A stretch of DNA of 64,000 nt from Vermamoeba vermiformis (Eukaryota), in NCBI GenBank assembly GCA_045837725.1, contig JBEWZL010000069.1, positions 62,001 to 126,000 on the forward strand. Direction: 5' to 3'. The notes under the pieces were generated by a model. That model was not told the DNA's origin. It saw only the letters and a list, made by a program, of their open reading frames with translations, and did no database searches. This document shows positions 6,718 through 63,300 of this stretch, piece by piece (the stretch's first letter is position 1; every line of letters starts with the position of its first letter). The translations under genes were made by a program, and so were the position numbers.

Positions 6718-9700
6718 TTAAAATCCAAATTCACCGGCTTTAAATCGCTTATTACCGCCTCCATCGCCTTCATCTCCGCCTTCAGCCTTTCGTTTCTTAT
6801 TGTCCCAAATATTTTCAATCTTCTTCATTTGGTTATTAATCTTAGCGGCTTTTTGGCCCTTTTGTTGCTTCGTTTTGCGACCATCGGCCATTTTAACTCC
6901 GAATTGGTACGCAGCTCTATTAATAAAAAAACACATTAGTCTCAATAGACTTATTTGCACATCGGTTATAATATCATAGTAAAGTAACATAATCTGTGCG
7001 GCAAGATCCAAACTTAGATCGGATCCAGATCCAGATCTAGATCTGCTCCCGAAGCATTGATGATATTGAATGTATAGCACATTATACTTACTTAGGAGTA
7101 GCTTCACGCGTTTGTTCGTATTTGAGCCAATCCTCGTCAGTTTCAAAGTCCCATCGCTTCAATTTCTTCTTCGTGTCCATCTTAGTGATATCATCTTCGT
7201 CTTCTTCTTCGCCCTGTGCAAATCCCATGCCTTCAAACGTACTATATATAACATTGATCAGTACGACGAATAAACTTGATAAAATAATAACGACGTGAGT
7301 TGTTGTTGTTACGTACGCAGGATAACATTCCATGTAATCGTCCTCTTCAATCTTTTTCTTGTCTTTTGGTTTTTCTTCGGCTTTAGGTCTATAACCAAAA
7401 AATTAGTTAATAATATCGATCAAAACTGTTATTAGTCTCAACCAAAGCTCATACTAGTACGGCACATGTCACGTGTTGGGGGATTAAGGGGTTTAAATAA
7501 ACGCGTGGCAGTAGTTGAGAATAGATTAATGAGATTTCCCCCAAACCCCTTAATCCCCCAACACGTGACACGTGTCATAGTCAAATTTTCAATAGTAAAA
7601 TATTACTATTATTATATTATAATTTTTTTGGCTGGTTTGTGGTGCAAAATAAAATTTGATTTGTGGTGAGGGCACAAGTTTCGATGACTAAATAAGGCTA
7701 TCCAAGTCAACTTACTTATTAGCAGTAGCTGCGCTAGCTTTAGGCAGGGGAGGCAAAGCATCATATGCAGCGTCAGAACTGAAGTCGTAGTCTGACGCGT
7801 CACCAGGGCCCATGGAAGGCATCATCGGACCCAACATGCCACTCGGCTCTGGCTTTTTCTCGTCTTTGTCGTTCAATGTAATATCATAGTCATCATCCAC
7901 GTCGTCAAAAATACTATATTTGGTAATCGTTAGTACTCGAGATTTCCTTTTATGGAAAAATGTTACTTACCTCGCAGAAACTTTAGGCTTTTGCTGTACA
8001 GGTGCGGGTTTAGCTTCGGGTTTTTCTAAAAATGGAAAGTTTAGTTATTATGATTACCAAATATAGTAATATATTGCTTTTACGGGCTTGTAACGTACCA
8101 ATTTTTTTCACTTTTTTATGACCGTGCTTCAGTACTGTCATAATTTTGCTAACTTTTTCGATAATCTCGGGATTAATCTCGCCAGATACGAGTTCTTCCA
8201 TCGCAGGCAAATCATCTTTGCTGCGCGTCACTATTGTTGGCAGTTCTTGGTGCAGATCCGGATCTAACTCAAAAACTAACGTCGTTCGGCCCTATTATAC
8301 TAATTTAGCACTAAATCCATAAAATACAGCATTGTATAGATATTAGAAGGTAGAGCAAACGTTAAAATGCGTTAAGAAATAAAATTAATAAACATTTTGG
8401 ATCGGATCCAGATGATAGTCTAATGCAAAATATGCGACATATATATAAGATTATATTATATGTTTAGTACATACCTTAACGAATGTGTCTATAGTCTCGG
8501 GATACTTCTTCAAAAACACTTCTCGAAACAGATTTCGGCCGAGCACTGTCTTGATCTCAGTCGGCATTTCCATCGCGCGAATTGTTCCGCCAGTGGTGAT
8601 CAATTGTTTCACGGCAAAGGGCTTGGAATGTTCTTCTTGTTCTTGGCGCGCTTTTTCTTCCGCCTTTTGTCGCTCTTCCTCTTCAAGTTCACTTTTGACC
8701 TAAAAAAAAATACTTAATTAATAAAAGACCAAAGAATAATAACAACTAAAGCAATATCATGTTGGATATAATATTTAAATGCAATTTCGTTGGAAAATTG
8801 GGTTTGTTCAGAAATTAGATCCGGTACGAAAAAAATAATTTCGTTGGTCGGTTAGGTATACTAGTAGACTTATATTATAGTAGTATATACCTTCTCTAAT
8901 AGTGCGTAATCAAGACCTTTGACCAAGTGCGTGTGTTCCAAATCACCTCCCAAGTATTTCGATCGTTCATATTCTTGTCTGCGTAACTCCTCTGGATCCA
9001 CTTGACTATCGAATACAACGAATTAAAATCCTCACTAATAATTAACATATCATTATTTTTATTACTTTAAAAGGGATTGGTTATTGTAAGCCCAATTTGA
9101 AATCAATTTTTTTTCTTCGAATAAGTTTGATAAAATTTGTACTGGATTTGAATGCTATTAGAATTGCGTATATAACTTACTCTTCACTAGGAGGAGGCAT
9201 ATTATGTAGTCCTACTGTCATTGTTGTTTCTTCTTCGTCCGCTGCATCACCTCCGTTCGCTCGTCGTTCCGCTGCTCGATCTCGATAACCTTCAGGTAAC
9301 ATTGCTTGCTTTTTCTTCATTCTAAAAGCAAATCATATTTTAATAAAACATACCAAATAAGGAAATTGTAAATAGAACTCTATTTTGAAATGGAATTGTC
9401 GTGGATCTGAACCAATTTCAAACGAAGAAGCAATTTCCTTAACAATATGGGTATATATTATAGTACTATATGGTATGCACGTACTTTTCTGCTTTTTTCT
9501 GCTGTTTGATCTTCCTGAATTCGGCGATTTGATCTGGAGTGACTTTCGCTTTGGCGCGAGTTGGATCCAAGTGCGCAAATTTGGACTAATAGGACAATAT
9601 TAGATATTAACCATTATATATGTACGGAGAATAGTTATGTTGAAGAAAGCAAAGGTAATAGAACGAGCATAGATCGGATCGCATCTTTGAACCCGATCGA

Positions 9701-10139
9701 GTGTGATCCTTGGGTGTTATAAGTATATAATAAATATCGTATTAGTTTAGTAAATAATTCTTACGCCTTCTTCTGTGTCTGGTCTACGAGGAGTCATCAA
9801 GAATTTTCTGAAATCTGAGTTTGAAAGTGCATTGCCACCGCCCAAGCTGAAAAAATTAAAATTATAATTAATACGTGTTATATAATATTAAAAAATGCGT
9901 ATAATTAATATTGATGCAATTAGAAAATAATTCTGAATTTTTGTAATAATTATTGAATTAATGCGTAATTCCTTTATTCCAATTGCAGCATTATTCTTGT
10001 AAAATAACACTAATAATTACTTGGATATGGCGTCCATGGCAGCGTTAGTCGGAGCGACCGGATTTGAAAACGAATCTGCATAGAAAAATCAATCAGCGTC
10101 CATTCGATATTTGCAATTAATTGATATACCTCCGGACAT
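6718..10139 (-). CDS. IK: RED/IK spliceosomal protein homologue, multi-exon
   Basis: MSGDSFSNPVAP start; RED_N motifs YRDRAAERR and SKYLGGDLEHTHLVKGLDYALL; RED_C motifs YMECYP and RWDFET...AYQFGVKMADGRKT. Confidence 0.9.
7467..7570. repeat. Perfect 28-bp inverted repeat in a RED intron
   Basis: 7467-7494 TGTCACGTGTTGGGGGATTAAGGGGTTT is the reverse complement of 7543-7570; 48-nt spacer. Confidence 0.9.
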
Positions 10140-10804
10140 AATGTAGTGTTATTATTATACAATAGAGCAATAATTCTGCCGCAAAATTTTGTACGTTTTT
10201 AGGGAGGCAGAAAAAACTGCCGTGACGCACTTCAAAAAAAGATTTTGTGCCTTCAATATCTATGAAGAGCATAATATTCCTATTTCGGCGAGCACACTTT
10301 AATAAATTTATCGCCGAACAGCAACCACACATCAACGAATAAACTTAACCGGTGATAGAACAGCTTATATAGTATATAATAGTCAGCGAATTAATCGTCA
10401 GCGTGGTCGTACTGTAAGGTAAGATCCCCGGCACTTTACCATCTGATAAAATTTTTGTTCAACTATGAATTATATGATTCTGTCTATTATATTTCGCATA
10501 TATATATATTATACCAATTATTGGTGCATAACAGAGCTTGAATTACACCAAAATTGAATTTTTTCGGTTTATTCGATCTGGCTCGGAAATTATCGTTTTT
10601 CCAAAATAGCTTCGCAGCAATACTTCATAATTTAATATAATACAAGGAAAATTATCTAAAGTATGATTTGCAGAAATTTTGTACATTCGATACTGCTGTG
10701 CCCCCATCCGCGAACTCTCTCTCAAGCAACAACAGAACAATCAAAATTGGCCTGGGAGTGGTTCTAGTTATCAAGTATGTAATGCTTTAGCACTATAGAT
10801 AAGA

Positions 10805-13755
10805 ATGCAACTGATTCTCAACAGTATAGGAATGGCTGCGATTGTGAATGAAGGTGCGACGTGTTACATCAGCGCATCTCTTCAGTTATTGTACAGTTTA
10901 GCACCGTTGCGCGAGCAAATCTTAATATGCAATCCTAAAACACCTCTTGGACTTGAATTGAAGAAGATATTTGTGCAAATGTCACAATTAAAAACCGTTC
11001 AAATTGGGCAACTCGCAACGTTAATGAACATCAGCAAGTCAGACTGTCGACATAAACAAGAAGATGCCCAGGAATTCATCATTAGTGTTGTTCATAAATT
11101 GGATAAAGACAAAGAGATGAAAAGAATTTTCTCGTCGGTGTTTGCAGGTTCGACTGTTACCACCATATCTGAGCGAAACATTGAACCATTTTTGGGTAAG
11201 TGCATTGATAGTTTAACGCAACTCTGACAGCAAAGTTGCAGATTTGTCCGTTCCAATTCCAAAACACCCAGCTCCAACTCTGATTGAATGCATTCAGTTA
11301 TTGTTCGACAACAATACAAAGTTTCATTCAATGCCGCAAGTACTGCTGTTGCATATAAAGCGATTTTCGGCCACTAAAAAGCTTACTTCTCGAGTTGAAT
11401 TTCGAGCAAAGTTGACAATACCAGCAACATTAAATGACAACAATTGCGCAGAGGCATTCAAGTTGCAGTCGTACATTGTCCATCAAGGTTCCAAAAACAA
11501 AGGTCACTATTGGACAAATAGTCTTTGTAATGGACAATGGATGGAATTGAATGACACAAAAATAACTAAAGTAAGGTATATCATTTTGTAGGCAACTTTC
11601 TGACATCAATAGATTAGTGGAGCTGCCAATCAAAAGTACTTTGAAGGCGAGTCTGTCGGATACCTAGTTGCATATGTTCAAGAGAGAGCTCAATCACCAA
11701 TGAAAGCTAAGAGAGCTGCTACCAAGAAAATTGATGATGATTATATGGACTGGGATACAGCATCAAGCTCTGATATGCCAGCAATTCACTCTATTGATAG
11801 TGACTCTTACGAAGCAAGTGAAAGTGTTGACTCTGACTACTGGTTTGAAGATTATGAGTGTGAGGAAGTATCGGATGAACAGCCGAAAGTAAACAAATTT
11901 GCTGATGGTAAGTAAAAAGGAATGCATTGATATTAATCTAATGGATTCCCAGTGAAAAAGCAAGCTGAAGTTGAGGGCTGGAAGATTGACGGCAAAAAGT
12001 TCAAATCCAAGAAAGATTACATCCCTCCTCCTGCTCCTGGCCCAAAGCGTGCAGTAATACTTCAGATAATCAACCAAATTCGGCAGCTACACAATCAATC
12101 CCAATTACAATCAGTTCTTAATGTCAGTCCCCTTGATTGTTACTTGTTGCTAATGGAGGAAGTTATTAACCACATTGTTTCCGAAACCAACAAGCAAAAT
12201 GACAAATTTAAGCTCACTTATAGTGATATTAGTGCGTACATCGGAGTAAGGATAGCCCAGCAATTATCTCCAAGTCATGCTATTGATGATGCTTGGGCAA
12301 CATTCAAGTATTCAAGAGGAATGTGGGGTAATCGTTGGATTGCCAAAACAATGCTCAAAGATGAATACAAGTTCATACACAGCAACAAGTCGTAAGTGAT
12401 TGTGCTGCATTTATCAATACTAATTCATTCAGTTTTGATCTTTATCATGTGTGGCGGCTCTTAAATGAGAAATATTCCTCAATTTGGACCCCTTATGGAA
12501 ACTTGGCACTTGATGATAAGGCAAATGCATGGAAAGGGCGTTCAATTTATCGAATTTACCGTCAACGGAAACCATTCCCATGGGCAATGTTAGAATACAT
12601 CACAATTGATGAAGCAGGCTGGATTGTAGCATTCATTCCACGTTATGGAGATTTTGCTAGTGTTACAAAGCAGTATCAACAGTGGAAAGAACGATATGAC
12701 AATTGGTTGCAAAACAAAGGAGATAAACCACCAGCATTCAAACGCTTGTTCCCAAGTGCCAGCAAGACAAACTTCAATTTACACATGGCTATCAATTTCT
12801 TGTTGTCAAGACTTCCTGACACTGATGGCAATTTGGCACCCTTTATAGTGTCTCCATGGACAGTTGATGACTGGAGTGCAATATTCTCTCGCGATATTTC
12901 CAACTATCAAATATATTGTGACAGAGAGTTCAGTTCTTATTGGCATCACTTTCGTCAATTCAAAGGTCTTGGATATACCTTGGGCATTGCTTCTGGACAC
13001 CACACTCATCTATTCCGCGACAACTTAGCCGTTGGTTTGAAAATTGGAGACTGGCATTCATTAACGGATAATTCAGAAGTCATTTTGACATATTCTGATC
13101 CTCAAGGTTCAGTTTGGGTTAGTAACAGGCATTCTGGAGAAGCTGTAGCATGCAGCAAGAAGCAAGGCAACAAGCAAGTCAAAAAGCAAAAAGTCGCTTC
13201 TGTCCCTACATTAATAGCACAGTACAGAAAGCATTTTTCAGCAGTTGACTCTCATAACTCCAAAGCCAAAAAATTCTTTTGGCCACATCGCATTCGCAAG
13301 GTAAAGACAGCATTTTATCTAAAATGGTGTAACATAACGTTTTAGGTTACTGATCGCTATGTGCTGGGAGACTGGGAGAGATCTGCTCAGGTTCAGGCGG
13401 AGCTATTGTACCAGGCTCTAACAGGCAAGGACATATCATCAAAGGAATTTCTGTCCACCTTGTCTCGCAGTTTGACAGAGAACTTTGTAACAAAGAGAGA
13501 GAGATCAACTTCTGTTGAAGCATTGGACTTAGCAAGGTCAAGTGCCAAACACAATCCTTATGCACACAGTTGCACGTATACTTTTGGATCACGGAAACGT
13601 TGCTTCCACTGCCAGAGTGAACAAGTTGATTCTTCTACAATGTAAGCTTACTTATTATTTCATTAATAACAGTCAACCTTAGGTATAAATGCCAACAGTG
13701 TAAAGTGCACCTCCACAAAAAGTGCTGGAAGAAATTTAAAGGAGTGAATTTATAA
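10805..13755 (+). CDS. USP (peptidase C19)-piggyBac transposase fusion with C-terminal Cys/His-rich domain; 5' end uncertain
   Basis: In-frame introns 11196-11241, 11571-11612, 11908-11952, 12392-12432, 13301-13345, 13642-13682. USP boxes NEGATCY, QEDAQEF, HQG..GHY, WMELND, GYLVAY. Transposase motifs LALDDK..WKGR..Y..RKP, IYCDREFSS, YRKHFSAVD. C-terminal CFHC..CQQCKVHLHKKC. Confidence 0.85.
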
Positions 13756-13793
13756 TTAAAATAGTAGTAATCTAGTTGTTAGTCAGGCAAGTG

Positions 13794-14057
13794 GTGACGT
13801 GTTCCACGTTGTGGTGTGACATGAGCACGAAAGTGACTGCTGTGGTTAGACGTAAGACTCTCCACATGTATGTGTGGGTATGAGTCAGAATGAGCCTTCC
13901 ACAGTAGAATTGCCACTGGTCTATTGGACTCTCCTAAGTGACGTGTTCCACGTTGTGGTGTGACATGAGCACGAAAGTGACTGCTGCAGTTAGACGTAAG
14001 ACTCTCCACATGTATGTGTGGGTATGAGTCAGAATGAGCCTTCTGCAGTAGAATTGC
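13794..14057. repeat. Two near-identical 120-bp direct repeats (period 144)
   Basis: 13794-13913 versus 13938-14057 (GTGACGTGTTCCACG...CAGTAGAATTGC), about 4 mismatches. Confidence 0.95.
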
Positions 14058-14138
14058 TTAGATAAGAGTTCAAAAAACCCATTTTTCAGTGATGGGTATC
14101 GTATACCCTTGCAGTTGGTTAAGGAATATTTACATATC

Positions 14139-16964
<2,826 letters not shown>

Positions 16965-17213
16965 ACCTTGCATCTTTATGTGCCAGACATTGACGAAAAT
17001 AATTGTTTTATGCTAAGTAACCCGGTTATTTCTTCAATCGAATTCGTAGAATAAAATATGCTCCTTAATTGTCCTAGCTGAGCGTTTCAAAATGAAAACC
17101 TTCGTGCAAAAAAAAAAGATTTGGGAAGAAGTAATTATAAGTTCATTTTTTGTACTGGCATGAAATCAGATCAACAAAATCGAGATCTGATTTCAGCATC
17201 GTATTACACTACA

Positions 17214-19481
17214 TTATATGCTTCCGCTATCACTAAGTGATTCTTGAAGCTGTTCATTGTCGCTGTCCTCTGAAGGCTTGGGTTCAGAGTCAGATTCGGC
17301 CGACACCGGCATGAAGTCCATTTCGCGAGTATGAATTACACTCCACCAGTAGATCCTATTGTCCGAGAATATAGCATATAGATAATTGGATTCAGCTGAG
17401 TACCATAACCAAGTACAAGTCGGAAACTTTTCGTTCAAAAGATCAGATTTCGAAATCTGGGGTGAGACGCAAACTATTTGCCGTTTGCTTTCCAAATCCT
17501 AAATTCAACATATATTAGCACATATTATAATACTATAGGCGTCAGACCTTTTCAATTTTGAGTCAACCTTGCGGATTCACAAAAAAAAAATTCAATTCAA
17601 TACCAACTTACGTAAACTAGCAGGCAAGGTCCATTAGAGCACGTAATATGACTTTCATAAGGAGAGAAAGCCAACAAATTCGGGTTAGACGCATCGAATT
17701 TTCCTTCAATAACCAAGGTTGCTTTTTGAAACAAAAACGGTTTGATCGCTATTTCAGTCGGGGTTAACGATGCAACCGACCTAAAAAAAAGATGAAATTT
17801 CAGAAATACTTTAACTAGGACTAGTATTTCATTAGTTTTTATGAACACTTACTGTCCTTCCGAAAGGTTCAAGTTGCTGAATCCGTGCGGCGAGGTTTGA
17901 ACTTGAAAAGTTTCGAGGTATCTTAAGCTATGGAGGGATGCGACTAATATCGACTTCAGTGGCTATATATAGATCTTGGCGCATTGTATCGTAGTATAAA
18001 CCTGTCAAACAAGAATGTTAGCAAAGATTTTTTTTGCAGTACAAGTTAATGACACGTGTCAACTAGAGGTCTTCATGACACGCCACAAATGTCAATTGCA
18101 AAGACAGGTAATCCGTGGACATGAACCGCTGCTGTCCAAATGACACGTGTCAAAGTGTCACCGGACACGTGCACAGTCTTTTTGCCTATATTTGGACAAT
18201 CATCGGTCATAAGCACCACGTGAGTGACGGACACGCCTCGATGACAGGTGTCAAGTCGGCTATAGTGTCGATAAAGTGCTGTACAAATAATGACACCTGT
18301 CAAGTTTTAATACCTACCGGTGATAACATGGTCCGATTTGAAGCCATGTTTCTTGAGCTTGTCTCCGACGTAAAAGTAAACTTCGTGTTTTGACGCGGCA
18401 AACAAAAACGGCAAGTCAAAGTTTCGGTCGCTGAAGTACACGTGACAGATCGGTTCTGGCAACTGTTTGGTGTCTATTAACGTCATTTTGTTCGTTGCAT
18501 CAAAGTACCATTGACTGATTTTGCCGTCCTAGAACAAATCTTTCGTTAAAATCGCTTTCATTTTTTTGGATGTCGATCGCAAAAAAAAAAATTTGTTCAC
18601 ACCTTAGCGCCGATAACAAAATTGGTTTTAACGCGCGGAGTGTAGTAAAAGCACGTGATTTCACTCGTGTGTTCATGAAGCGTTTGAGTTATTTCGTATC
18701 GATTTTCAGTTTGATGTTGTTCACAGACAAAAATTGTTCCGTCTGCAGTTCCAACAATGAGTTTATCGAATATAGTTATTCCCTTGACTAGTCTTCTAGT
18801 AGTAGGAAATGATATAGATTCTTCTTGGTGATATAAAGCAAGCGTTTCATCGCAAAAATTAAACGTCGGAATGTCCAGCGTGTCAGATCTGCCTCGTTGA
18901 TAAGTGAATAATCGAACTCTTTTGGCTATATTTCGATATAATTCAATAGGTACTCCTGGATTTATACTCGTTCGAATTTCTATCAGCGATTTGTGGCTAA
19001 TTATAGCTTTTTCTAATTGTGCAAGATCTTCAGCCGCGGTTGGCAGTTCGTCTAATCGAAGGTACTCTAGTGCAGAATATTTTGATATTATTTCAAATGC
19101 TGAGGGAAAGTTTTGATGCTCCGGATCTAAGCCTATCAATCGAGTAAAAATTACTTTTAATTTTGAAAATTAATTTTTTCGCTCTAAGCTCTTACTTGAG
19201 AGGTCAAGATACGTGACAATATTAGGATTGCTTCGATTTAATAGAACCAAAGGATCAATATTATTCTCCCATTCGTCCAACTCAAAATGGGTCCGCGATC
19301 TCCAAAGCAAATCTCGAAACTCCTTGCTAACCGCTTGAATTCTAATCAAAATTACTTAGATATTGTAAATTAATAGACTACAGATTTATAATTCTTACGA
19401 CAAGATGGCTGGGATGCTTTTCCGTTCCAAAAACGAACAGATGTGCAATTTAATTTCAATCGGTAATGCTTCGAACTCCAT
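17214..19481 (-). CDS. F-box protein with LRR-like and WD40-like repeats
   Basis: N-terminal F-box MEFEALPIEIKLHICSFL; LEYLRLDE LRR-like segment; LIVGTADGTIFV and TLHEHTSEITCF WD-like segments. Confidence 0.7.
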
Positions 19482-19601
19482 TTAGTCTATTGAGAAATAA
19501 TCATTACCTTGTTGTTTGGGTTTTGGGACCTAACTTTGGGGCTTGACTAAAGTTTGACCAAAAAAATTTGCCGCCATAATATATACGTGTATTTTGAACG
19601 A

Positions 19602-20524
19602 ATGAACACAAAATCGAGAACTATAGGCTTGTTGAGGCATATTAACGAGCGATATGACCTCGGAGTATGCCTTGACGCATTTCTGGCGACACCATTTTTC
19701 AGATTGAAGCTTCTGTTGCAGCTACAGGTGAGCAAAAATTATAATATCTATTTAATATGTATATATTAATATTTTTAGGTATATATGACTCGTACAAGTT
19801 ACTTTAAACGCGTGCAATAATTTACTAATTTTTATTTTGGATGCAGCACTATTATTTGGTTACTGGGGAGATAGATAAGCGTAAGACTGTTATTGGATGG
19901 ATACGGTCGATGTTAATGGAGGGTGGTCTGAGCGCACTATTCAAAGGTGGTGTTCTTCGTTCGATAAAAGCGATCTCATCCGAACCGCGCGCGCCATCGA
20001 ATACGCAACAGTCATTCATCAAGAAACTGATCAAAAATATTATTTTATTCACATTATGGCAACCTATTGACAGCTTGGTCGTATTGGTGATGGGATCTAC
20101 TTTGCGATCGACTCCAAAAATCTTGGCAGGCGTTTTTTCATCACCGAAAGGATTTATCGCGCTTTATAATGGTATAATTATTGGAATTATTGGTATTATC
20201 ATACAAAATATTGCCCTTGAAGGATTTAGCCGGATCTGGTCAAAATATTTCCAGCGAAGCCTCAGTGGACTCAAGGACCTTCCTATTAATATTTTAGCCT
20301 CTATTTTTTATTACCCTTTTAACACCATTCATCGGCAAATGATAATTACTGGAGTTAACGAGGGAATTTTCGGATCGAAAAAGTTGAACTTGTTATCGCT
20401 ATTCAAGCAACCTTTGTACGGCGGATTTTCACTAGAAATTGTTCGCTTAGTGTTTAATTTCCTAGCGAATGATTTTATAGAACTCTATCGTCTTTACAGG
20501 AGAGGCTGGAGTCAGATCAAATAA
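19602..20524 (+). CDS. Divergent mitochondrial carrier family protein (one intron)
   Basis: Three degenerate carrier signatures PFFRLKLLLQ, PIDSLVV and YPFNTIHRQM, followed by GGLSALFKG, GFIALYNG and LYGG. Confidence 0.75.
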
Positions 20525-20725
20525 AATAAACGAGGATTAGCGTAGGTGCTTTCACTTTGCCTGGATTCATTGCACACTATTGCTTTCATTAGACTGTTAG
20601 TTTCCATTCGATCTTCATCATCCCAATATAAAAATCTGCAAACGGTCCTTTTTTTTGCCCACGGGCAGGCAGAAGCAAACAAAACCAGAACTCCGGATAA
20701 AAGACACATAACTTCGAACGCGAAC

Positions 20726-21046
20726 ATGCAACAAATTGTTTTTATGGTATCCAACACCACTTCTGGTGCTAAAGTAAATCTGCGAGCCACTATCCCCAAA
20801 ACCCCAGTAGAAATTAAGAAAATCATTGCCGCAGGGTTAGTCGCGAAGAAATTATGGAAAATCAAGAGTGAAGAAGACATTAGCGAAGTTGTACTTCCGA
20901 GTGGCAAGTCGTGTCCAGAGTTAGTCGTCATAAACGACGGAGATACATTTTTTATTCGAATAGGCACAACGAAACAAAGCAGGCGAATTTTTAACAAACA
21001 AACATCCATAGGGAGCTCAGAGTTATCTCCTCTATTGATAAATTAA
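20726..21046 (+). CDS. Small hypothetical protein (106 aa)
   Basis: Open ORF from ATG 20726 preceded by an A-rich leader; no recognised motif. Confidence 0.35.
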   Translation: MQQIVFMVSNTTSGAKVNLRATIPKTPVEIKKIIAAGLVAKKLWKIKSEEDISEVVLPSGKSCPELVVINDGDTFFIRIGTTKQSRRIFNKQTSIGSSELSPLLIN

Positions 21047-21414
21047 CGGTGTTAGTTGTTAATAAAATAATTTGTATTTTTTAAACTCGGATCAATTAAA
21101 CTCATTTGTTACGTAAATGCCAGTAGACACCAGTCATAAGTTATGTTATGCCAAATATCCACAAATTAGTACTTATTTGCTTCGCAATTTGAATGGGCAT
21201 TCCCTTTTTCACTGTGGTATAGAAACAATGTTTTTCGAAACACGTTTCCTGCCGCGGTTTCGTTGGTAAAATAAACAATGTTTCGGTAGAAAACAGTGTT
21301 TTTTGGACCCGTTGTAGTAGATCCAGGGAACCGATTATGATATATATCTACTATTAATTATGCGAATAAAATTGATTTATTTTAAAGTTTACACTAATAT
21401 GTATAGTAAATTAA

Positions 21415-23356
21415 TTACAAATTGTACAAGCGAACTAAATATTCGTTGTACAAGATAGCAACATTTGTGTCTTCAACCGCGTTCAAATTCACTTTCCAGG
21501 CAAGGCTCTGTAATACAGATTATTATTGTTTAACTATCGAATTATGACTGTTGTTACTTACGTCGTAAAGTTCCAATGTATTAGGAAAAGATTCGTTTCG
21601 GTACGCAACTGGCGCCAATAGATTCAAGCCCAAGGCAAAAATCGATCTCTCGTAATCATTGAGTGATGGTTGATACTTACTAAGTCTATCGGACAACTCG
21701 GAATTTATAGTTATCGCTTCATTTCGGTAGAAGTCATAAGTGACGACCAATCGAAGGAGTGCAGTATAGCATTTTGTTTTTATCTTGTCCCACGGCAATG
21801 CGATCATCAAGTCACTCGCTTCTTTGGCTGATTTTGGATCCTGTTGATTGATGAGTCATTTGCAATTCTGTAACGCATAAAAAGTATACCTTCTTTATTC
21901 CGAGACTCCAAAGAGCGTTTGCTGTTGAAGTTGGGCTAATTTTGAAGGTCAAATATGCTAGAAGGGCCAGAAAAACCTAGACTCGATTCATTAATATCAT
22001 ATTGTTACTCTCAAAGCAACGTACGTGAAATCGGTGCTGTGCAACTTGAGGTGAAACAATCGTATCGGATCTTACTGACAGATCAATCAATAGCTACGTA
22101 GATTAGTAATTAGTAAAAAGACAAACGATAATACTTACAGTATATAAGCGAACGTTGCGATCGACGTAGGGGGCATCGAATGACAATGAATGCTCATTTT
22201 CATCTTCGTCAAACATCAATTTGACACGATTAGTGCTAGAGCGAAGCAGAACACTCTGATAGTATAACGTGAGCAAAGCAAGTACGAATCTACGTCACTT
22301 AATAAACTTACCTTCATTGCAGCACCGCTAATGTTCATCGTGCCCTATGAAAATGTCAATCGAGGTAGCACAGTAACAGATTATCATACCAGTGTATTCA
22401 AGGATGAAATTATGCTTGCTCTCGAGCTGCTTTTGTCCGGTTTCGGAATAAATGTTTTATCGCTTGGAACCAAAAACAAGCCCTCGATGTCCAGTACGTT
22501 AAACTTGAAAGTTGAAGCTTTTGCTGCATCTTTAATCAAGACGACTTGCATTTCCGGAGTTGGCGTGCGCTTTTTTGGGGTTTGCGCGCCTTGATTATTG
22601 TTATCGCTGTCCAAAATCAGCAACGCGTAGTACATTAATGTTAACTTACACAATCTTTTTGTTACGCAGAACCATTGACGCTGCCTTGCCGTCATCGTCC
22701 GATTCACTAGTTTCACTGAAACGATCAGCATTAGCATGATGTCATCGTTTTACTTACTCCAACTGTAATTGACTTTGTTCAACGATGTTCTCCGACTCGC
22801 TGTCGTTGACGTTGGCATTGGCTGCGAGTTCGAGCTCTGCCTGATGCTGTTTGACATTGCAATAAGTACGGTAATGAGATGCTAAAGAACCTACTCTTTT
22901 AATAGCACGGTGTCGACCTCGTAAGTGCTCCCACAATCTGGTTTTAATTACTCGTCTGATGATCTTCATACCAACTTCAGATAGCATTGCGTTCTTCTCG
23001 GACTGCCTGTGTCGTTGGTCGGCATAGAGACGGATGATGTGATTAAATTTTTTGCTTCCGATGTGCTCTATGAATACTTAGAAACCAAATTCAATCGGGT
23101 AACACAAACTTACTCTCGTATAAGTCTGACTCGCGGGACAAAACATCGGGCACTTCTGCGATCTGTTCGAGGTTCAGCATGAAGCGAGCACGTAGGTCTT
23201 CTTTTGTCTCCCGCAACAATTTGGTAAGATCCTATAAATTATTGTGAGAATAGTATGCCAAATAAGGGATCGACATACGCGAGATGTTCTATACAAAACT
23301 GCCGCCACAATTGCTCGGATCTCGGTGGCAGACTGGATTAAAAGCGCGTTATTCAT
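21415..23356 (-). CDS. Transposon-borne accessory protein of unknown function, multi-exon
   Basis: Short GT-AG introns separate coding segments (DLTKLLRETKEDLRARF; MKIIRRVIKTRLWEHLRGRH; ...ILYNEYLVRLYNL*). Lies inside the TIRs. Confidence 0.65.
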
Positions 23357-23733
23357 TGTGTTACGTTATGTTTCAGTAATAACAACAGTTTGGTTTTATG
23401 TGTGGTCCTTCGAGTGGAAACACAAGTAATTTGCAAAATTGAAACTGCGTTTTGTGTTTCAACTTTTTTTTTTACCAATTGCCGCCCAATTCTTTTGTTT
23501 GCGTTCAGTTATCCATGTATACCAAGGATATTACAATAATATATGTGCAACAGCTGGTGACGTTGAATGAGGTGCGGTGCCAAAGCAAATATTTGTGGTT
23601 GCCGTCGAGAATTTGTCTAGTTGAAATAAATATCCAACAACTATCGGAGAACTATTGAATTTTATACTTTAATCTCGTGGTTGTGTTGACTTAACGCAAC
23701 ACGGAGCGGATCCAATTTTAACATTTTCCAATA

Positions 23734-26693: not shown

Positions 26694-26819
26694 CGTGGCC
26701 GTGTTTTTTTAAATAAACGTTGTTTTTTATCAATACACAGCGGGAAAAGGCGAAAAACATTGTTTCTATACCACAGTGATTTGTTTGTAAATTTTCGAAA
26801 ATTATCTCTGAAGCAAGCA

Positions 26820-35855: not shown

Positions 35856-37509
35856 TTAGAGAACGAGTAATACAACTACAATCATTGCCGACATGTAGTA
35901 CATGAGTGCGCTAGAACCACTTCTTAATTGCGAAGGGGTTGACTTGGCTTGAGGACTTTCAGAACCAGAAGGAACTTCGCGGTTGCTGTCATTCGGAGAA
36001 TTTTGATCGCTCGGAGAATTTCCGTTGGGCGAGGGCTGTTCATGAACGCCAAACAGCTCCCAGAACTTCTGTGAAGCACGAGGAAAAATCGTTTCCGGGC
36101 GTAATCTGTGATCACCGTCAAAGGCCAGCACGTCAAAATAGGAGTATATCGTGACATTGTTAGTCTCGTTCATGATAAAGTCGTGCGTGCGCTCAATGTA
36201 GTAATCGTTGTCGAAGCCTCCGCGGACATTAGCCCACACTCCGCATTCGTTCAAAATCAACGGCTTGCTGTGATTTCGTGCAAAATTTGCCCAGAATTCG
36301 AGACCCAAATATCCGCTGTGGACGGTGTTCCAGGCCTTTTGACGGAGCGATTGCAAGGTAGTGCTATTTGCGAGCAAAGTCCAAACAGTCGTCAGTGCCG
36401 GGCTCGACATTTGTGTTATTGACTGAGGCCCTCCATATTGACACATTATGCTCCACGCTGTCGTCAATGACAGAAAATCGCGTTGGTGACCAAGATCCAA
36501 ACGGTTGTGTACCTTCCCAATTGTATGTTCCATATCAATATCGTAGCTGTCAACGCCAACGTAATCGACGTATTCACCACCTGGCCAACAATCCGGAGCA
36601 TTAACAGCGTTATAACCGCCGTTAGGATTCCAAATCGTCTTGAAATTGTTGCCTAAAGTAGTTGGTGTCAAAAAAATATTTTGACATGTCAAGTTTTGAG
36701 CGTTGGATCTGACTTACCAGGCACAGAACGCATGGTAGTAACGATTTGGGCATAATAAGGTGCCCAGTAGTTGCACCCTGGGAGTGCAGTCCATTTGTAC
36801 CAATCACCGTTGAATTCCCAGCCGATGCGCAAGAGTGCAGTGGACAAATTGAACTTGACCAAATTTTCACCGAGGGTCTGAAAGTACTGATTGTATGTGC
36901 CTTGAGCTCCGGTAGCGATAGGTACTAACATATAATAATACGAATTAGTGTTTGAAGATTTATCGGTTTAAAAATCTGAAGCGGTCCCCTAGTAATAAAA
37001 GTTGACATCTTGACACGTGTCAAGTCAGTTGAACGACAAAATGCGAATCAAATCTTCTCGATGCGAAAATTAATTGCGTATAATGAACTTTAACGAGAAA
37101 GTAAATCGGATTCAAAATTTGAGACTAGATCCGGGTTTTGCTTACCACCTTCCACCAACGAAGGGATCATTGGGATCGAAATAATCATATGACGTTCTTC
37201 GCCTTCAGGTGCGCTATTAGCCCAAGTACTCCAGGGGCCAAGCCACCAGCCCTGACCGGCAATGTTGTCCCATGTTTCAGCTGCTTCGAACTCCATCGCG
37301 TAAACAACGGGATTGTTTAGCCGAAGACTGTAGTTTTGAACGTTATTAGGGCCCCATGGCGCAACGCCAGCGTAGACTCCAAGTTGAGGTTTTGAAGACG
37401 CGATCTGCCGAAAAAATTATTAGATCGAGGCACGAAACGAAAAGAAAAGATCACTTACAGATAATATTGCTAGAATAGTAAAGAAAATAACGAGTCCTTT
37501 TGTGTTCAT
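35856..37509 (-). CDS. Glycoside hydrolase family 26 (beta-mannanase-like), secreted, probably GPI-anchored
   Basis: Signal peptide; LRIGWEFNGDWY (acid/base Glu), WPGGEYVDYVGVDSYD, KPLILNECG (nucleophile); S/P-rich stalk and hydrophobic C-terminus. Confidence 0.85.
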
Positions 37510-47596: not shown

Positions 47597-48547
<951 letters not shown>

Positions 48548-50669: not shown

Positions 50670-50844
50670 AATCAGTGCGAAAAACTTGAATATAAATGAA
50701 ATAATAATCGAAAATAAAACGTGAATATTCAAAATGCTTGATCTCTGCGCGATCGCGTGACTTCACGCTTGGATTGAACGTAATAACGTTATGTATAACT
50801 ATACCATTTATAACACTATTTACATTAATTACAGGTGGTCAGAT

Positions 50845-51258: not shown

Positions 51259-51381
51259 CGTGCGTGGTGTTCTGATCAAAATTGTTTGTGAGATCCGAAT
51301 TTACTACCTAACTTTCTTACAACCCGGAGCAAATTAAAACAATAATTTATTTATATAAGTTCAACAGCGTATTTATAATTA

Positions 51382-53400: not shown

Positions 53401-53744
53401 GTGTTGATCTTGTGCGGAAAATTTTCAATGTGCAAGAAATGGAGCTGGACCATTTCCCTGCTAAAGCTTTCCAAGCGTTGCGGGCACTAGTTGATACGCT
53501 TACATTATTTGAGCAGTTCTATTGCGTTCAATTTCGTTTAATGCTATTTAAGTTCCGGATCTGCGTCATTCTGGATGTAGGCCTTTCTGCAGTGCAATAT
53601 TCCCCAAACGGCATTTTACATGCAGTAAGGAGAATGGTAATATCAGACTGTTGAGTGAGTTCGTTTGTATCTATATTTAGAGCGAAATCTTATTGATGGT
53701 GATTTAGCGGTTTATTTATTTTATCAAACAGCAGATTGGAGAAG

Positions 53745-56402: not shown

Positions 56403-56469
56403 TACAATAATATTAACGTATACTAATATCAATATGTATCATTTGTTTATAAATTAAAACTATCGTTCG

Positions 56470-59400
56470 TTACAACTTCATGTTCGGATCCGCTTCTTCG
56501 CTTCTCCAAGACAAATAATCTCTGACATAAGTTGTGGTATCGTCACGATCCGATAATACGAGATATCGTGCGTTTGCCATTTTTGGAATGTGTTCAGTGG
56601 GTTGAAGCCACTCGATTTTGCGTGATGGCAAGTGCCACGATGAAACGATTGGTGCATTTTGTGTGTGAATGAATAGCCGTTCGTTTGAGCACGGAACATT
56701 CTGCAAATCATTCATGAATGAGTTATTCAATAAATATTATAAGTACGAAATGTTATGTTTTACCTCGTAATTTATGTAGTTGGGGCGAAGCACATATTTG
56801 ACAATTTCTGTTTCAGATCCGGTTCGCAAGTCAACAAATCCAACTGCTGTCGTGAGACCACAATATCGACGTCCTCGCAAGTAATCAGGTGCATACCCCA
56901 ATATAAGCATTGTATTCTCATCGACTATCTTGGTGTATCTGATAGTCAACGTATCAGAAGAATTGGATGATTTTTGCGGCACCCAAATATCTTTCATTGT
57001 TCGCAAATCTGTGACCGTATAATGATTGCGTGCAGAAGTACTAGAAACAGTGACAATAGTATTGTTGAACGGATTAAATGTTGCAATCTCATTTTCTTTG
57101 GTATGCAATTCTGCCGTGACTATTTCTTGCTCAATGTTGTAGACGCAGCTCACTAAAAAATAATTAGTATTCTATGTGATAGCATTATATTGAAAAAATT
57201 GTAAATAATTGTTATGGGAAGTTTTTTTTTTGACACGTGTCAACGGTAATTTTTCACGTGTCATTCGTTGCAACAAATATCTAACCACGAAGCTCTCAGA
57301 AAACATTTATATTTCTAAGGCAGTTTGACACGTGTCAAAAACTGGTTTGTGAAGTACGTACCGGTCGGGCAAAAAATCGAGGTAGCGTCTATCGAAGTAA
57401 TTCCTGCCAAATCTTTTACTCTGCCACGAATGGCAAGATTTTTTAGCACTGGAGATTCAGTTTCGCTCAAAATTGTAAATATATGCATCAAGTTCTCGTT
57501 CCGTCTTGCGAGCAGCACTTTTGGCACTCGCGCTGCTTCATTATTAGTGTCTTTCAATAATGTGATAAATGACCGATGTGTTGTTGTGTTCGAAATGTCT
57601 GAAAGTTGTTGACTGTGACAGTTCCAATAAGAGACGTGTGTCGTATTGTAATTGGAGTCAAGGTCTTTCAAAATCAACCAATCATCGTTCAGCAAGAATG
57701 GCTTGCCTTTCAATTCTGCAACGTTGGAGTACTTGTTTTGTTGCCAGCTCGAGTTCAACCTGTAAAAAAACAATGTTAATACTGCTTCAAAAAGTGACAC
57801 GTGTCGTCGTCGCAAATCTGCGTGCGAAAGAAAATCAAAAGGACTGTCAACTTTCAAAAGAACATCGCATAACCCAAACAAGTATTGATTCGCTAAAATT
57901 GTCCTGCGATTAGGCCAGGACGCTATTAAGTGTCAAAGTGTCACTTTTTAACGATTTTTTATGACACGTGTCATTGTAAAAAAAGTTTGATCTTAAGTGT
58001 CAAAATCGGTCGTAAAGATAAGCAATGAAGTTATGACACGTGTCATTATCAAATGATTGATCTTTTTGTCACTTACTTCAATAGTCGCTGAACTCTCGTT
58101 CGATAAGGCAGTGTCACATCTTCAACGTGATTGAAGTACTTGACATGATAATGACGCCAAAGTTGCTCGTCTTGATTGAACAACGTTGTTTTGAATTCTT
58201 CGTCCAATGTCTTCGAGCAGCTGTATAACCTCGTCAAGTCATGTGGAGCAAGATGCATTGCAATTTCTTTGTATAGATCTTTCGGTAAATCGAACAGACT
58301 GTGACTTCCATTTATGGTAATATTTGCAGATTCCGACAATTCTTCTTGCTTTTTTGGTTTATCGATACAACGAAACAGCTCCCTAAAATCGTCGCGGTCG
58401 ATCATTTTCTGCAAATGTTGACGAATGGCTTGTGCGTTGTGAGGCTGACAGTGCTGCAAAAGATAAAAGAATAGCATTGTATATGTCATATTCTGCACCG
58501 AAAAACTCCAATGTTCAATGAATTTTTGCCACGCTGTGTTGGTGGTCTCGTCTTGTTCGACGATCATTTTAAGAGCGGCAAGAAATTCTACGGGATAAGT
58601 GTTCGACGGTCCTAAGTACTTTGAAAGATACGTAATCGCAGGAATTTCTCCCGCCTGGTTCCTAGAAAAAACCCCGGCATTAAATTTAAAAAAAATCAGA
58701 AAAAGTTTAGTACTAATACTGTAAACAAAAGATCGCTTTCCGGGCGATAGTATAAAAATTAACGTGTCTTTTTAAGCGAAATTTCATCGTTTAAATTTGT
58801 ACGGGTTGAACTTACGATTGCGAGGCAGCAGCAATGAGTTTTTGAACGTCCGTTGCATGTTTCTTCATCGCTTTCCAAATACGCTCAAAATCGACCACTC
58901 GAACACGTGCATGTCTTGTAGCGTAGTGTAGTATATTATTGCCGCTAGAATCTTGTTCTAAAAAAAAAGTCGTTAGATCAGATCGGATCCACCAAATTTT
59001 TTTTTGTGGTGGTTATTCTTACCTAAGAACCAATCAGGATATCTTTGCAAGTATTCTTCGAATTCCGTAGATTCCTTTAAATGGTGAAATACTTGCGAGC
59101 CCAGAACTATTTGTTTCTTCGTGTAATTGTTGTCTTTGAGCCAGTTCAGCATTCGCATCTTGTCTTTGAATTTCATATTCGATTGCATAATAGCTAGGCC
59201 TAATTCTTTTTCTGGAAAAAAACGAGTTAAACACAATCCATTGTCGTAAGATAGTAGACTAAAAAAAGGTACTAAGAATTTCAATAATTGCGTTAATAAA
59301 TAGAAAATGTCAGAGACCTCGGTTATTTGACACGTGTCAAAGATCTTAATTTTTTCACGTCACATAAAAAATATTAGTGCAACGTCGGGAAATAATTTAA

Positions 59401-60151
59401 CGTCAAAAAGTTGAAGGTGTCAAATATCGCTTGTTCTAACAAGGATAAGCGATTATATAATAAGGTTTTCTTAAATTAATAAAATTGATAAATTTACCGT
59501 CCGTGCAAACAGCGCCAAGGGTGAAAGCAGCCTTTAGGTACTTCGGTTTGTGCGCCAGGGTTAGCAAGGGAAAATCGTCTCTATCGATCAAAGGTGTCGC
59601 GTATTTAAGTCGCTTTATAATATTTCCTGAAGATAAACTTGGTGCGGAGGCAAGATCTGGCAAAAATTTTAGTTTGGAAGATCCGCAGCGGATTTGCCCA
59701 TACCGAATAGTTTCAACCATGTAAACTCTTCATAAGGTAAGTCGGTATTAATGCTTGATTTAATAAGCAATTTAACGGCCATTTCATGCAGACCAAGCCG
59801 CACAGCCTGCAACGAATCCGTAAGTCAAAAATTAAAGAACTTACTTTACGACTTACTACGCTAATTAAATCTTCTTCGTCTTCATTTTTTCTTATTATAG
59901 CACGAATTAATAAGCGTTCTTGAGCAGACAACAAAGCAGTGAAGGTTTCGACATCTGACGTTGTAATTGCGTCTTTTAAAGCCTAATTTTTATTCATTAA
60001 TTTCTAAACATATATATTTATCGTACAATAGTTATTGTATAACTTAAGCGTTTTGTATCGGTGTTATGCAATTAATTTATTTTCAGATTATCGAATTTCG
60101 GAACGGATTCGAGTCTTTAAGAACGCTACGTACCACTCTATTGCCTTCCAT
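56470..60151 (-). CDS. Tandem paralogue A: helical/ankyrin-like N-region, F-box, beta-strand-rich C-region
   Basis: LFDLPKDLYKEIAMHLAPHDLTRLYSCSK F-box; exon-by-exon homology to paralogue B. Confidence 0.72.
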
Positions 60152-60339
60152 TACTTGCTTAATCTGATTTATACGTGCAATCAAAAATAAGTGTCATTCA
60201 AAAACTGTTCTACTTGTGCCTTACTCACAGTGGGACGGGACACGAAGTGGTGCGTTCTTTGACAATTCTCAAAAGTGATTCGTAAAGACCAAATCTACGA
60301 ATCGTCATTTATTTGTTTATAAATTAAAACTATCGTTCG

Positions 60340-63300
60340 TTACAACTTCAAGTTCAGATCCGCTTCTTCGCTTCCCCAAGACAAATAATCTCTGACATAA
60401 GTTGTGGTATCGTCACGATCTGATAATACGAGATATCGTGCATTTGCCATTTTTGGAATGTGTTCAGTGGGTTGAAGCCACTCGATTTTGCGTGACGGCA
60501 AGTGCCACGATGAAACGATTGGTGCGTTTTGTGTGTGAATGAATAGCCGTTCGTTTGAGCACGGAACATTCTGCAAATCATTCATGAATGAGTTATTCAA
60601 TAATATATAATATGTTTTAAGTCTTACCGCGTAGGTGTTAGTGAACACGTGTTTGACTCTGTTTGTTTCGGATCCAGTTCGCAAGTCAACAAAACTACAA
60701 GCAGATGCATAAGTATATCGACGTGCCAACATATGATTGCGACACTGTCCCATAATAAACAGCGTATGCTCATCGACTATCTTAGTGAAAGTGATCGTCA
60801 TTGGGTGTAATGTCTTTCGTGGCACTTTAACGGTGTTGTTTGTGCGAATATCTGTAATCGCATAGTAATCGTTGCCATATGAAGAAACGGTGACAAAAGT
60901 TTTGTTGAACGGATTGTATATAGTTCTACTGTCGAAGTCGAATTTGGGCAGTTGTGCGGTCACTGTTTCGTATTCTATGTTGAATACACATCCAGCTTAA
61001 AATAGCGTTAGAGTAAGACATGATATTGTCCCAGTAAAATAGTGAAAATTTGAAAGAATTAGTGAAGGAGGATTGTTGACACGTGTCAAAGTGTCAATTT
61101 TTTCACACAGCTACGTACCGTACGGAAAAAATATCTGATTTTCGGTGATCGAAACAATGTCCTCAAAGACTCTTAAAGATCTGTAATTATCATCAGGAAC
61201 ATTTTTCAACGGAGCCGATTCTTTCTCGCTTAGAATCTTCAAGAAGAAATTTTGAAGACTTTTGTATTCGCTAACGAGCACTTTCGGAGCACTAGCTGAT
61301 TCAGTCGTGTCTTTCAATATTGTGCAAAATTTGTGGACTGAAGATGTAACTGAAATATTTGCAAAGCTTTGAGTATGACAGTTCCAATAAGCGACTGGTG
61401 TCGTATTGTATGACGTATAATACTCATTCGCAAGGTGGTTGCTCATAATAATCCAATTGTCGTTGATCAGTTGCGGCTTGCCTTTCATTTCTGCAACGGC
61501 GGAATATTTATTCTTCCGCCAGCTGGAGTTTAGCCTGAAAAATAAAACGTTAATAATAGGCAAAAACAAGAATTCAGAAGTTGACAGGTGTGCTGTCAAT
61601 TTTAAGTGTCAAACTCAACAACGAATTTATGACACGTGTCATTGTAAAAAAATCGATCTTAAGTGTCAAAATGTCCTGCTCAACAATGAAGTTATGACAC
61701 GTGTCATTATCAAAAAATTGATCGTTTTGTCGCTTACTTCAATAGTCGCTGCACTCTTGTTCGATAAGGCAGTGTCACATCTTCAACGTGTTTGAAGTAC
61801 TTGACGTGATAATGACGCCAAAATTGCTCGTCTTGATTGAATAAGATTGTTTTAAATTCTTCGTGCAATGTCTTTGAGCAGCTGTATAACCTCGTCAAGT
61901 CATGCGGAGTGAGTTGAATAATAATTTCTTCGAATAATTCTTTCGGTAAATCGAACAGGATTGTATGATGACTATCACTTCCATTTATGGTTATATTCGC
62001 TGATTCCGACAATTCTTCTTCCTTCTTTGGTTTGTCAATGACGTGAAACAATTGATGCAAGTCATCGCATTCAAATAATCTCTGCAAAACTCGTCTGAGG
62101 TGCTGAGTATTGTGCGGCTGACCGTGCTGCAAAAGATAACAATACAACATGCCATACTTCAAATTCTGCGTGTCATAACTCATGTGATGTTCAGTATACG
62201 TCATCCACGCTTGATTGATTTCGTCTTGTTCGACGATAATTTTGAGCGCGTTAAGGAATTCTACGGGAGTGGACGAATTACCCAAGTACTTTGAAAGATA
62301 GGCAATGGCTGGTACTACTCCCGATGAGTTCCTATAAACAAGTCATTAATTATCGAACAATGAAACAACGACGAAAGTAGAGTGATTCGTGTAGGCTTTA
62401 AAGCGCCACCGGACTTGATTTTGGCGATATCGCCAAAAAAAGGAGATAAACAGATAATTGTAAAATTCGATCGGACTTAACCGACAATTTTGTTATAGTA
62501 ATCACGTGCCTGGTTTCGATTGAAATTTACGGCTCATTATTGAGGTAAAACGTAATAATTTTTCACGGTAAACTTTACCTTTGCAACGCAGCAGTGATAA
62601 GTTTTTGTTTGTCAGGGCAAATTTTCTTCAATATGGACCAAGTTCGATTAAATGAAGAGACGCGTACCTTGTCATGTCTCGTAATTTCGTGCAGGATATT
62701 GTTGTGCGTTAACGGATCTTTTTCTACGAATAAAATTTTTAGATCTGATCTCGGATCTCGAGAGCTCAACGGTAAATTTTATTCGTACCTAAGATCCAAT
62801 CACCATCAGGATAACTTTTCAAGTATTCTTCGAATTCTGGAGATTGTATAATGAAGCGCCGTACTTCAGAAGTAGGTACGATTTGGTGCGTCACGTAATT
62901 GTTGTCTTTGAGCCATTGCAAAAGTTTGATTTTGTCTTTGAATTGCAAGCAAGATGTCATAATGGCCGAGCCTAAGGCACTCGCTATATAAAAAAAAAAA
63001 TACGGTTAGTTAAACTGAGGATAGTTTCAGTTTTTGACACGTGTCATTTGAAAAAACCAACAAAGCGATCTATATTAACTAATTTAGGCGTCGAAGCAGC
63101 GATTTTTTTTCCGTGAAATGATTTTCAAACACGCCGTTTGGCACGTGTCATAATGCTGATCGTAATTTAAACTTTTGGCGGTTTCGGTGACAAGCAGTAT
63201 TAAGGTATTTCATCAATTGCTTTAATAACCTCGGTAATTTAGTCCTATTAATAAAATTGATAAATTTACCGTCCGTGCAAACAGCGCCAAGGGCGAAAGC

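Follow-up and report, generated by a model that had tools for sequence, protein, structure and literature searches.

A perfect palindrome of 12 bases, TGACACGTGTCA, occurs as 15 exact copies in a stretch of 64,000 nucleotides (nt) of Vermamoeba vermiformis DNA (assembly GCA_045837725.1, contig JBEWZL010000069.1, positions 62,001 to 126,000; hereafter the window), and all of these copies fall within introns according to our gene models. The observation is real and unusual: in 100 shuffles of the window that preserved its dinucleotides, the word did not appear once (mean 0.00, largest count 0). We conclude that the palindrome is a cis-element, sharply defined, rather than a fragment of some repeat. 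By analogy with known protein sites, we tentatively favour a reading in which it is a putative docking site on duplex DNA for a two-fold symmetric (homodimeric), sequence-specific protein, an interpretation that we regard as possible rather than probable. A sequence-only reading of the same DNA had reported the 15 copies, with far less than one expected by chance, and had described them as a CACGTG core combined with TGACA half-sites, lying in introns of six genes from five unrelated families. Every copy was found where it had been reported, the shuffles bear out the expectation, and the site census and gene models given below agree with the rest.

Copy number and anatomy of the palindrome

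The excess extends to imperfect sites, with 21 observed against 0.20 expected when up to one mismatch is allowed, and 26 against 2.26 with up to two. Broken down by mismatch, the series runs from 15 exact copies to six sites with one mismatch and five with two, about two of the mismatched sites being attributable to chance; hence, there is no tail of decayed copies. TGACACGTGTCA is the sole 12-base palindrome present more than twice in the window, and its parts head the k-mer tables. Regional clusters of exact copies are seen at 15.6-18.3 kb, spanning two genes, and at 57.2-63.0 kb. The exact copies are not independent, because nine of the 15 sit in two tandem F-box-like paralogues, one intron pair of which (57904-58076 and 61535-61737) is about 84% identical. 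The four copies in that pair count as two events, and the independent introns carrying the palindrome number about 8, instead of 15 independent events.

The full site consists of two inverted TGACA cores around exactly 2 bases, an arrangement found 19 times in the window. A census of TGACA/TGTCA pairs with gaps of 0, 1, 2, 3 and 4 bases gave 1, 1, 19, 0 and 0 sites, respectively, and the everted order of the cores with a 2-base gap had no occurrence in the window. The ten arm positions are exact in these 19 sites, and a single arm mismatch was seen in only 4 sites, with 2.45 arm matches of up to one mismatch expected by chance. Variation is found at the centre, where the dinucleotide is CG in 15 sites, GG in one, CC in one and AG in two; the CACGTG core, which requires CG, is thus present in 15 of the 19. 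Of the 30 bases that immediately adjoin the word on its outer sides, 29 are A or T. CpG is not depleted in this DNA (observed/expected 1.22 for the whole window and 1.35 for the intron class), so methylation decay plays no part.

Larger arrangements are built on the same parts. The exact word followed by AA and a third half-site makes up a 20-mer that recurs in four unrelated places: at 18141..18160 and 61077..61096 in the window, and in two environmental loci described below (L002 and L003/L011/L039). GTGTCA half-sites reach a density of 1.47 per kb in the intron class of our gene finder, 0.23 per kb in exons and 0.49 per kb elsewhere. Introns with two exact copies have them 65-95 nt apart. 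The GG-centred site (18242..18253) and the CC-centred one (18291..18302, the reverse complement of the former) share an intron with the exact copies at 18050 and 18141, and the AG-centred sites, at 32975 and 34220, occur one per identical repeat of a small element resembling those bounded by long terminal repeats (LTRs). This LTR-like element (32890-34246) has two identical 112-nt direct repeats that begin with TG and end with CA, with AGTG on both outer sides, and encloses one minus-strand open reading frame (ORF) of 364 amino acids without a Pfam family.

Host introns and the position of the copies within them

Introns were inferred by reading ORFs by hand in three frames and locating GT..AG borders, and also with a crude exon-chaining gene finder. 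By our own gene models, six genes belonging to five families host the 15 exact copies, in a total of 11 GT..AG gaps. The finder assigned 14 copies to introns and none to exons, leaving one (37011) unassigned; in the hand reading, the latter is flanked by two exons of a GH26-like gene and lies inside the GT..AG gap that separates them. The finder divides the window into 47.8% exon, 36.3% intron and 16.0% neither, an intron share that is too high because neighbouring genes were fused and two transposon-like regions were run through.

On the minus strand, a RED/IK-like gene (RED_C) hosts the copy at 7566..7577 in an intron of 327 nt (7389..7715). A STE20-like kinase on the plus strand carries one copy at 15635..15646, in an intron of 69 nt that splits a W codon before MAPEV (15620..15688), and another at 16150..16161, in an intron of 59 nt (16112..16170) and 9 nt before its 3' splice site. 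Next comes an LRWD1/DHU1-like WD gene on the minus strand (Atlas score 0.87, a lead only), whose intron at 17928..18313 has an uncertain 3' border (17928 by the finder, about 17963 by eye) and contains two exact copies (18050..18061 and the one opening the 20-mer at 18141), both centre variants and several half-sites. The GH26-like gene, a weak Pfam match on the minus strand, has the copy at 37011..37022 in an intron read by hand at 36926..37145. The remaining copies belong to the F-box-like paralogues, both on the minus strand. Gene A holds them in introns 57153..57361 (copies at 57231..57242 and 57326..57337), 57904..58076 (57962..57973 and 58034..58045) and 59212..59497 (59328..59339), and gene B in introns 60975..61118 (the copy opening the 20-mer at 61077), 61535..61737 (61630..61641 and 61695..61706) and 62984..63269 (63035..63046, together with a one-mismatch copy with an arm change at 63139..63150).

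The intron location of the copies rests on these inferred gene models and not on RNA. Three RNA runs compared with positions 4001-24000 (20 kb) placed 8, 26 and 34 reads at 95-99% likeness. So few reads were placed because the RNA comes from a diverged relative, with 24 of 29 letters agreeing at one joint; the runs (X15-X17), which bear the label of the species of the best DNA match and are about 83-95% alike to the window, are probably from a different strain or species. Two RNA joints, 4034|4085 and 5065|5281-5284, agree with our gene model, both of them outside the palindrome-bearing introns. Taking introns as 25-36% of the window and intergenic plus transposon DNA as 16-30%, the chance that 8 independent non-exon sites would all be intronic is about 0.002 to 0.05. 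The restriction to introns is therefore suggestive, not proven.

The palindrome is found in two of the seven kinase introns and in 10 of the 171 introns predicted by the finder, so the word is not a general intron feature. Its hosts tend to be long (9 of 11 measure 144-386 nt, while 93 of the 171 predicted introns measure 45-110 nt), an association that is largely an effect of target size. Of 13 independent introns, 6 have their first copy no more than 31 nt from the 5' splice site, against 5.06 expected, and 4 have their last copy within the same distance of the 3' splice site, against 5.07. The position of the palindrome is therefore indistinguishable from random placement, and a bias towards the 5' splice site that is apparent by eye was discarded after this test. 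In the 10 predicted introns with the word, its distance from the 3' end ranges from 9 to 177 nt; most copies are 40-220 nt away from the 3' splice site. Such random positions are what one would expect of a DNA site and not of a splicing signal.

The copies do not belong to a repeat family

The flanks and spacers of the palindrome were compared in both orientations, with the word masked, among 18 units consisting of pairs with 35-nt flanks and single copies with 60-nt flanks. High scores were obtained only for one overlapping pair and for paralogues, and the best pair of unrelated flanks scored 30, against a maximum of 27 for shuffled partners. Apart from the paralogues, there is no likeness beyond the shuffled controls and the palindrome is not a repeat family. 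Membership of all copies in one repeat family, which the sequence-only reading had named as fatal to its own claim, is thus not what we observe. In the flanks of single or paired copies we detected no consistent direct repeat that could represent a target-site duplication. Likewise, a test for a family of transposons or miniature inverted-repeat transposable elements (MITEs) found no internal sequence common to the 18 units beyond the word, and a test for introners showed that host introns of 59-386 nt have only the word in common. As a possible source of the palindrome, we also considered a piggyBac-like region and rejected it, no ends related to the word being found there. The piggyBac-like ORFs (DDE_Tnp_1_7) extend over about 10000-14700 and have about 2.5 times the depth of their neighbours in a DNA run; no clear terminal repeats were found for them.

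One copy is part of a larger symmetrical structure. In a 122-nt hairpin (7458-7579) with inverted arms of 37 nt and TA on both sides, the word at 7566 makes up the outermost 12 bases of the right arm. The arms are 92% complementary and the fold of the host intron has a z-score of about -7. No second copy of the inner arm was found among 107 loci or viral contigs.

The F-box-like paralogues allow the fate of individual copies to be compared. The single copy in intron B1 of gene B (60975..61118) aligns with the second copy of the paralogous intron A1 of gene A (57153..57361) in poorly conserved surroundings, and about 95 extra bases of A1, compared with B1, hold its other copy. Introns A3 (59212..59497) and B3 (62984..63269) have one exact copy each, and these two are not aligned with each other. 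The presence of exact copies in diverged paralogous introns favours retention over purely neutral recent insertion, and suggests that the copies in poorly aligning introns have been retained. The identity between the paralogues (56441-63800) is itself a mosaic: it reaches 98% along 293 nt at the 3' end and lies at 72-90% in the remainder, which suggests patchy gene conversion.

The same word in environmental sequences

A scan of metagenome contigs for two copies of the word 53-83 nt apart returned 100 stretches. Most of them belong to unrelated organisms and consist of repeats arrayed in tandem or in inverted orientation, their GC contents ranging from 0.25 to 0.70. Six locus groups are eukaryote-like and resemble the window (L003/L011/L039, which are one locus, L002, L008, L032, L047 and L078), with GC contents of 0.34-0.41 and short GT..AG introns. 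L032 has the pair of words in an intron of an XPD-type helicase gene, and L003 has it in an intron of an Arm-RhoGEF-PH gene, where the copy at position 254 lies 3 nt before the 3' splice site. Over 23.4 kb of these window-like contigs, all 15 sites are exact and the sole near-miss overlaps a full site. None of the metagenome stretches overlaps the window, apart from one match of 33 nt. In a collection of prokaryotic genome contigs the pair pattern was very rare (6 stretches), and in viral contigs it was seen in 1 stretch.

Another environmental organism carries the 12-mer three times, 42-44 nt apart, in a repeat of about 250 nt that is dispersed and whose flanks form extended hairpins (L017, L020, L045, L051, L052, L057, L065, L072, L076, L080, L087 and L099). 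This is a different use of the same palindrome.

A putative protein docking site and its alternatives

The sequence-only reading had offered, without choosing, a dimeric DNA-binding protein, a chromatin-positioning signal, an RNA splicing element and a tiny mobile-element footprint. Among these four options, the dimeric protein fits the anatomy best, because of the strictly inverted TGACA cores, the 2-base centre and the A/T flanks. The strict geometry and the constraint on the arms, combined with a variable centre, look like protein-DNA contact. According to this model, a homodimeric protein would dock on the two inverted cores, a layout shared with the sites of TGIF/MEIS-type homeodomain proteins of the three-amino-acid-loop-extension (TALE) class, here with a centre like that of an E-box. 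In the introns of some of the genes, small clusters are made up of single sites, pairs 65-95 bp apart and additional GTGTCA half-sites, and the bound protein may act there as a regulatory or chromatin mark within the gene. Protein binding as such, DNA rather than RNA as the target, and the effect of binding are inferences. The half-sites, the recurrent 20-mer and the presence of a centre variant in both LTR-like repeats also count in favour of a protein site, LTR-like repeats being places where such sites are common.

Several points weigh against the docking site. A DNA site leaves unexplained why copies are placed only in introns, with none in intergenic or transposon DNA. Transcription-factor sites normally tolerate mismatches, which makes the near-invariance of this word unusual: near-misses are far fewer than exact copies in the window (15, 6 and 5), and the look-alike contigs hold 15 exact sites and 0 real variants. 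Binding alone does not account for the origin of identical 12-20-mers in unrelated sequence. The copy-with-copy RNA pairing predicted in three of the four two-copy introns fits the RNA explanation equally well. The TALE dimer sites given in the portions of the papers cited below have GC, GG or CC centres, whereas 15 of our 19 sites have CG. Finally, no TALE homeodomain gene was seen among the ORFs of the window that were scanned, nor was a candidate binding protein found among them.

One could argue, instead, that the palindrome works in RNA. Two copies, or a copy and a half-site, would form a stem of 12-17 bp in the intron of the pre-mRNA, and this 'zipper' would loop out the intervening sequence, fold long introns, and help or regulate their removal. 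We hold this explanation to be doubtful, even if it is the sole one that directly predicts the restriction to introns. Four of the 11 host introns have two exact copies 65-95 nt apart, and the minimum-energy fold pairs copy with copy in three of these four, with predicted stems of 14 and 17 bp including the flanks. In a further intron, the exact copy at 63035 is predicted to pair over 9 bases with the one-mismatch copy at 63139, and another has the pairing of the 37-nt arms. The length of the hosts also fits, 9 of 11 being in the long range given above. As a precedent, the available excerpt of PMC4691745 describes (AC)m-(GT)n introns in teleosts. Besides, palindrome-bearing introns fold better than shuffled sequences (mean z-score -1.79 for the 11 introns, against -0.23 for 30 sampled introns without the palindrome). 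However, this better folding is partly built in, because the palindrome and its copies must pair. Moreover, 7 of the 15 copies, although equally exact, lack an exact partner in the intron where they lie; folding is not needed in two of the hosts, which at 59 and 69 nt are short introns of the ordinary kind; the copies show no preference for intron ends; and in the largest intron the predicted fold joins the two exact copies to half-sites nearby instead of to one another. The pattern of variation does not favour a helix either, since mismatches lie mostly at its would-be centre, where they would be most harmful, and one arm variant yields an A-C clash instead of a wobble pair. The A/T rule of the flanks has no obvious reason in RNA.

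A third explanation, which we consider unlikely, is that the palindrome has no function of its own and is a tiny copied or mobile module, a 12-20-mer that spread by copying and survived where it was harmless. It could stem from the termini of foldback or MITE-like elements, from the footprint of an insertion or excision, or from another process. The mismatch series (15/6/5) matches that expected from a recent burst with a divergence of about 3%, the regional clustering is what local hopping would give, and copying accounts for an identical 20-mer in four unrelated places more easily than four separate origins do. The copy at 7566, as the tip of a 37-nt terminal inverted repeat in a hairpin with TA on both sides, points in the same direction. 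Terminal palindromes are also direct repeats, so recombination could collapse a pair to a solo copy. A precedent is found in fungal introns with terminal inverted repeats and no target duplications, as described in the portion of PMC8469720 consulted here. On the other hand, the copies have nothing beyond the word in common (30 for the best unrelated flanks, against a null maximum of 27), and the flanks of all copies and pairs gave no target-site duplication. Neutral insertions should build up in intergenic and transposon DNA, yet these parts, which make up 22-30% of the window, contain no copy. Diverged paralogous introns each keep an exact copy, which favours retention over six independent recent insertions. 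We know of no mechanism that inserts a bare 12-20-mer, and this also counts against a copied module.

The second and third explanations can be joined in a broader conjecture, which we judge improbable when taken as a whole. The word would be a eukaryotic 'highly iterated palindrome', an exact and self-complementary module of 12-20 bases copied into introns genome-wide, across a whole lineage, by an undescribed mechanism that leaves no target duplication and carries no flank. It would be kept exact by the pairing of copies in the pre-mRNA, or of a copy with a trans-acting partner, and would thus be a universal intron zipper and the nuclear counterpart of the bacterial elements known as repetitive extragenic palindromes (REPs) and highly iterated palindromes (HIPs).

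A splicing element had also been among the options of the sequence-only reading, and as a core signal it found little support. The UGACAC half-site would serve as a branch site, with the palindrome supplying one in either orientation. Six UGACAC half-sites outside the palindrome do lie 8-31 nt before a predicted 3' splice site, and the copies at 16150 and at position 254 of L003 lie 9 and 3 nt before theirs. Nevertheless, most copies are 40-220 nt away, and the palindrome is neither in most introns (two of seven in the kinase, 10 of 171 predicted) nor at a fixed distance from their 3' end. The usual branch-like words among 93 short introns were TTAAT, CTAAT and CTAAC, in 42 of the 66 that had a candidate, against 7 with TTGAC. 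Together with a placement that does not differ from random, these results make a core splicing signal very unlikely. Chance, base composition or an assembly artefact can be set aside as practically negligible, given 0 copies in 100 shuffles and the same word in the same context in independent environmental assemblies.

No single reading covers near-invariance, unrelated flanks and intron restriction at once, and what is left of our confidence goes to something other than the readings listed. What the palindrome means depends on which of them holds. If it is bound by a protein, it would represent, for a compact eukaryotic genome, an unusually information-rich and almost invariant class of intragenic site, and it would offer a way to study how regulatory or chromatin marks are placed inside the genes of such genomes. 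If it acts in RNA, introns would have a generic module for folding that can be reused wherever pairing is needed, of which the simple AC/GT repeats of fish are the only example known so far. If it was copied, it would point to an undescribed spread of very short palindromes in eukaryotic DNA.

Other features of the window

The window is eukaryotic and gene-dense. Besides the palindrome hosts and the piggyBac-like region, it contains NOG1, P450, mitochondrial carriers, a CBM20 gene, aldo-keto reductase, polyubiquitin and acyltransferases. All Pfam matches are to widespread families, and scans of the window for Rfam families and tRNAs found nothing. Its intron signals are GTAAGT with branch words of the CTAAT/CTAAC/TTAAT type. 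A candidate DNA transposon at 21209-26779 has perfect terminal inverted repeats of 29 nt, 5.5 kb apart, with TTT on both outer sides; it contains 13 internal ORFs without a Pfam family and no copy of the palindrome. Tandem repeats were also found, with three units of 45 nt at 44041-44164 and a pair of 120-nt units, 97% identical, at 13794-14057.

Comparison with known systems

We found no published description of this word in introns in a literature search that covered the papers themselves. The 12-mer was found there only within primers in Ebola papers. The 10-base core GACACGTGTC appears in the literature, including papers on plant stress, none of which concerns introns by title and abstract, and a search for the 9-mer together with 'intron' gave nothing relevant by title among the matches listed. 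In papers on yeast Cup9/Tos8 sites only primers matched, which leaves a supposed preference of these proteins for TGACAC unsupported.

The closest protein sites are those of TALE-homeodomain dimers. The excerpted text of PMC6158717 reports a crystal structure of the TGIF1 homeodomain on 5'-ATTGACAGCTGTCAAT-3', in which protein chains A and B make up the biological unit. The TGIF1 site (TGACAGCTGTCA) has, like ours, inverted TGACA cores, a 2-base centre and a length of 12 bp; the crystal oligonucleotide also has A/T beside the cores, as in the window. The portion of PMC5449588 available tabulates MEIS3 with TGACAGGTGTCA, and the variants at 18242 and 18291 are this word and its complement, letter for letter. 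TALE dimer sites are described in these excerpts as targets of transcription factors, whereas the word in the window is confined to introns, near-invariant and iterated.

The E-box/G-box sites (CACGTG) of dimers of the basic helix-loop-helix (bHLH) and basic leucine zipper (bZIP) types resemble the palindrome in their CACGTG centre and in the two-fold symmetry over 12 bp; the HES5 word CGGCACGTGCCA stands in the same table as that of MEIS3, in the portion cited (PMC5449588). Yet an E-box has a fixed centre, and the word in the window is the opposite, with invariant TGACA arms and a variable centre. Since the core is present in 15 of 19 sites and the variation falls on its centre, we do not assign the palindrome to the E-box/G-box class.

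On the RNA side, the teleost (AC)m-(GT)n repeats are, in the excerpt cited (PMC4691745), complementary intron elements that bridge the splice sites. They share with the palindrome a generic complementary sequence that is reused, confined to introns and predicted to pair across the intron. They differ in being simple repeats of variable length with partners at opposite ends of the intron (PMC4691745, same excerpt), whereas the word in the window is one fixed 12-mer, often alone and without end bias.

Among mobile introns, the internally symmetrical (stw)introns of Hypoxylaceae have long terminal inverted repeats and multiply without target duplications, according to the excerpt of PMC8469720. 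These (stw)introns and introners (PMC9860276, also in excerpt) show intron-associated inverted symmetry without target duplications, as here, but their likeness extends over the whole intron, whereas in the window it is limited to 12-20 bases and the same introns are present in both paralogues. The host intron with inverted arms of 37 nt is the one akin to symmetrical (stw)introns.

HIP1 in cyanobacteria and REP/REPIN elements in bacteria are short exact palindromes, dense, set in unrelated surroundings and arranged also as doublets, whose function and spread are unsettled. Both HIP1 and REPs are prokaryotic; HIP1 occurs in coding DNA too, and REPs are intergenic and longer. As iterated short palindromes, HIP1 and REP elements would be the systems closest in kind to the intron palindrome of this window.

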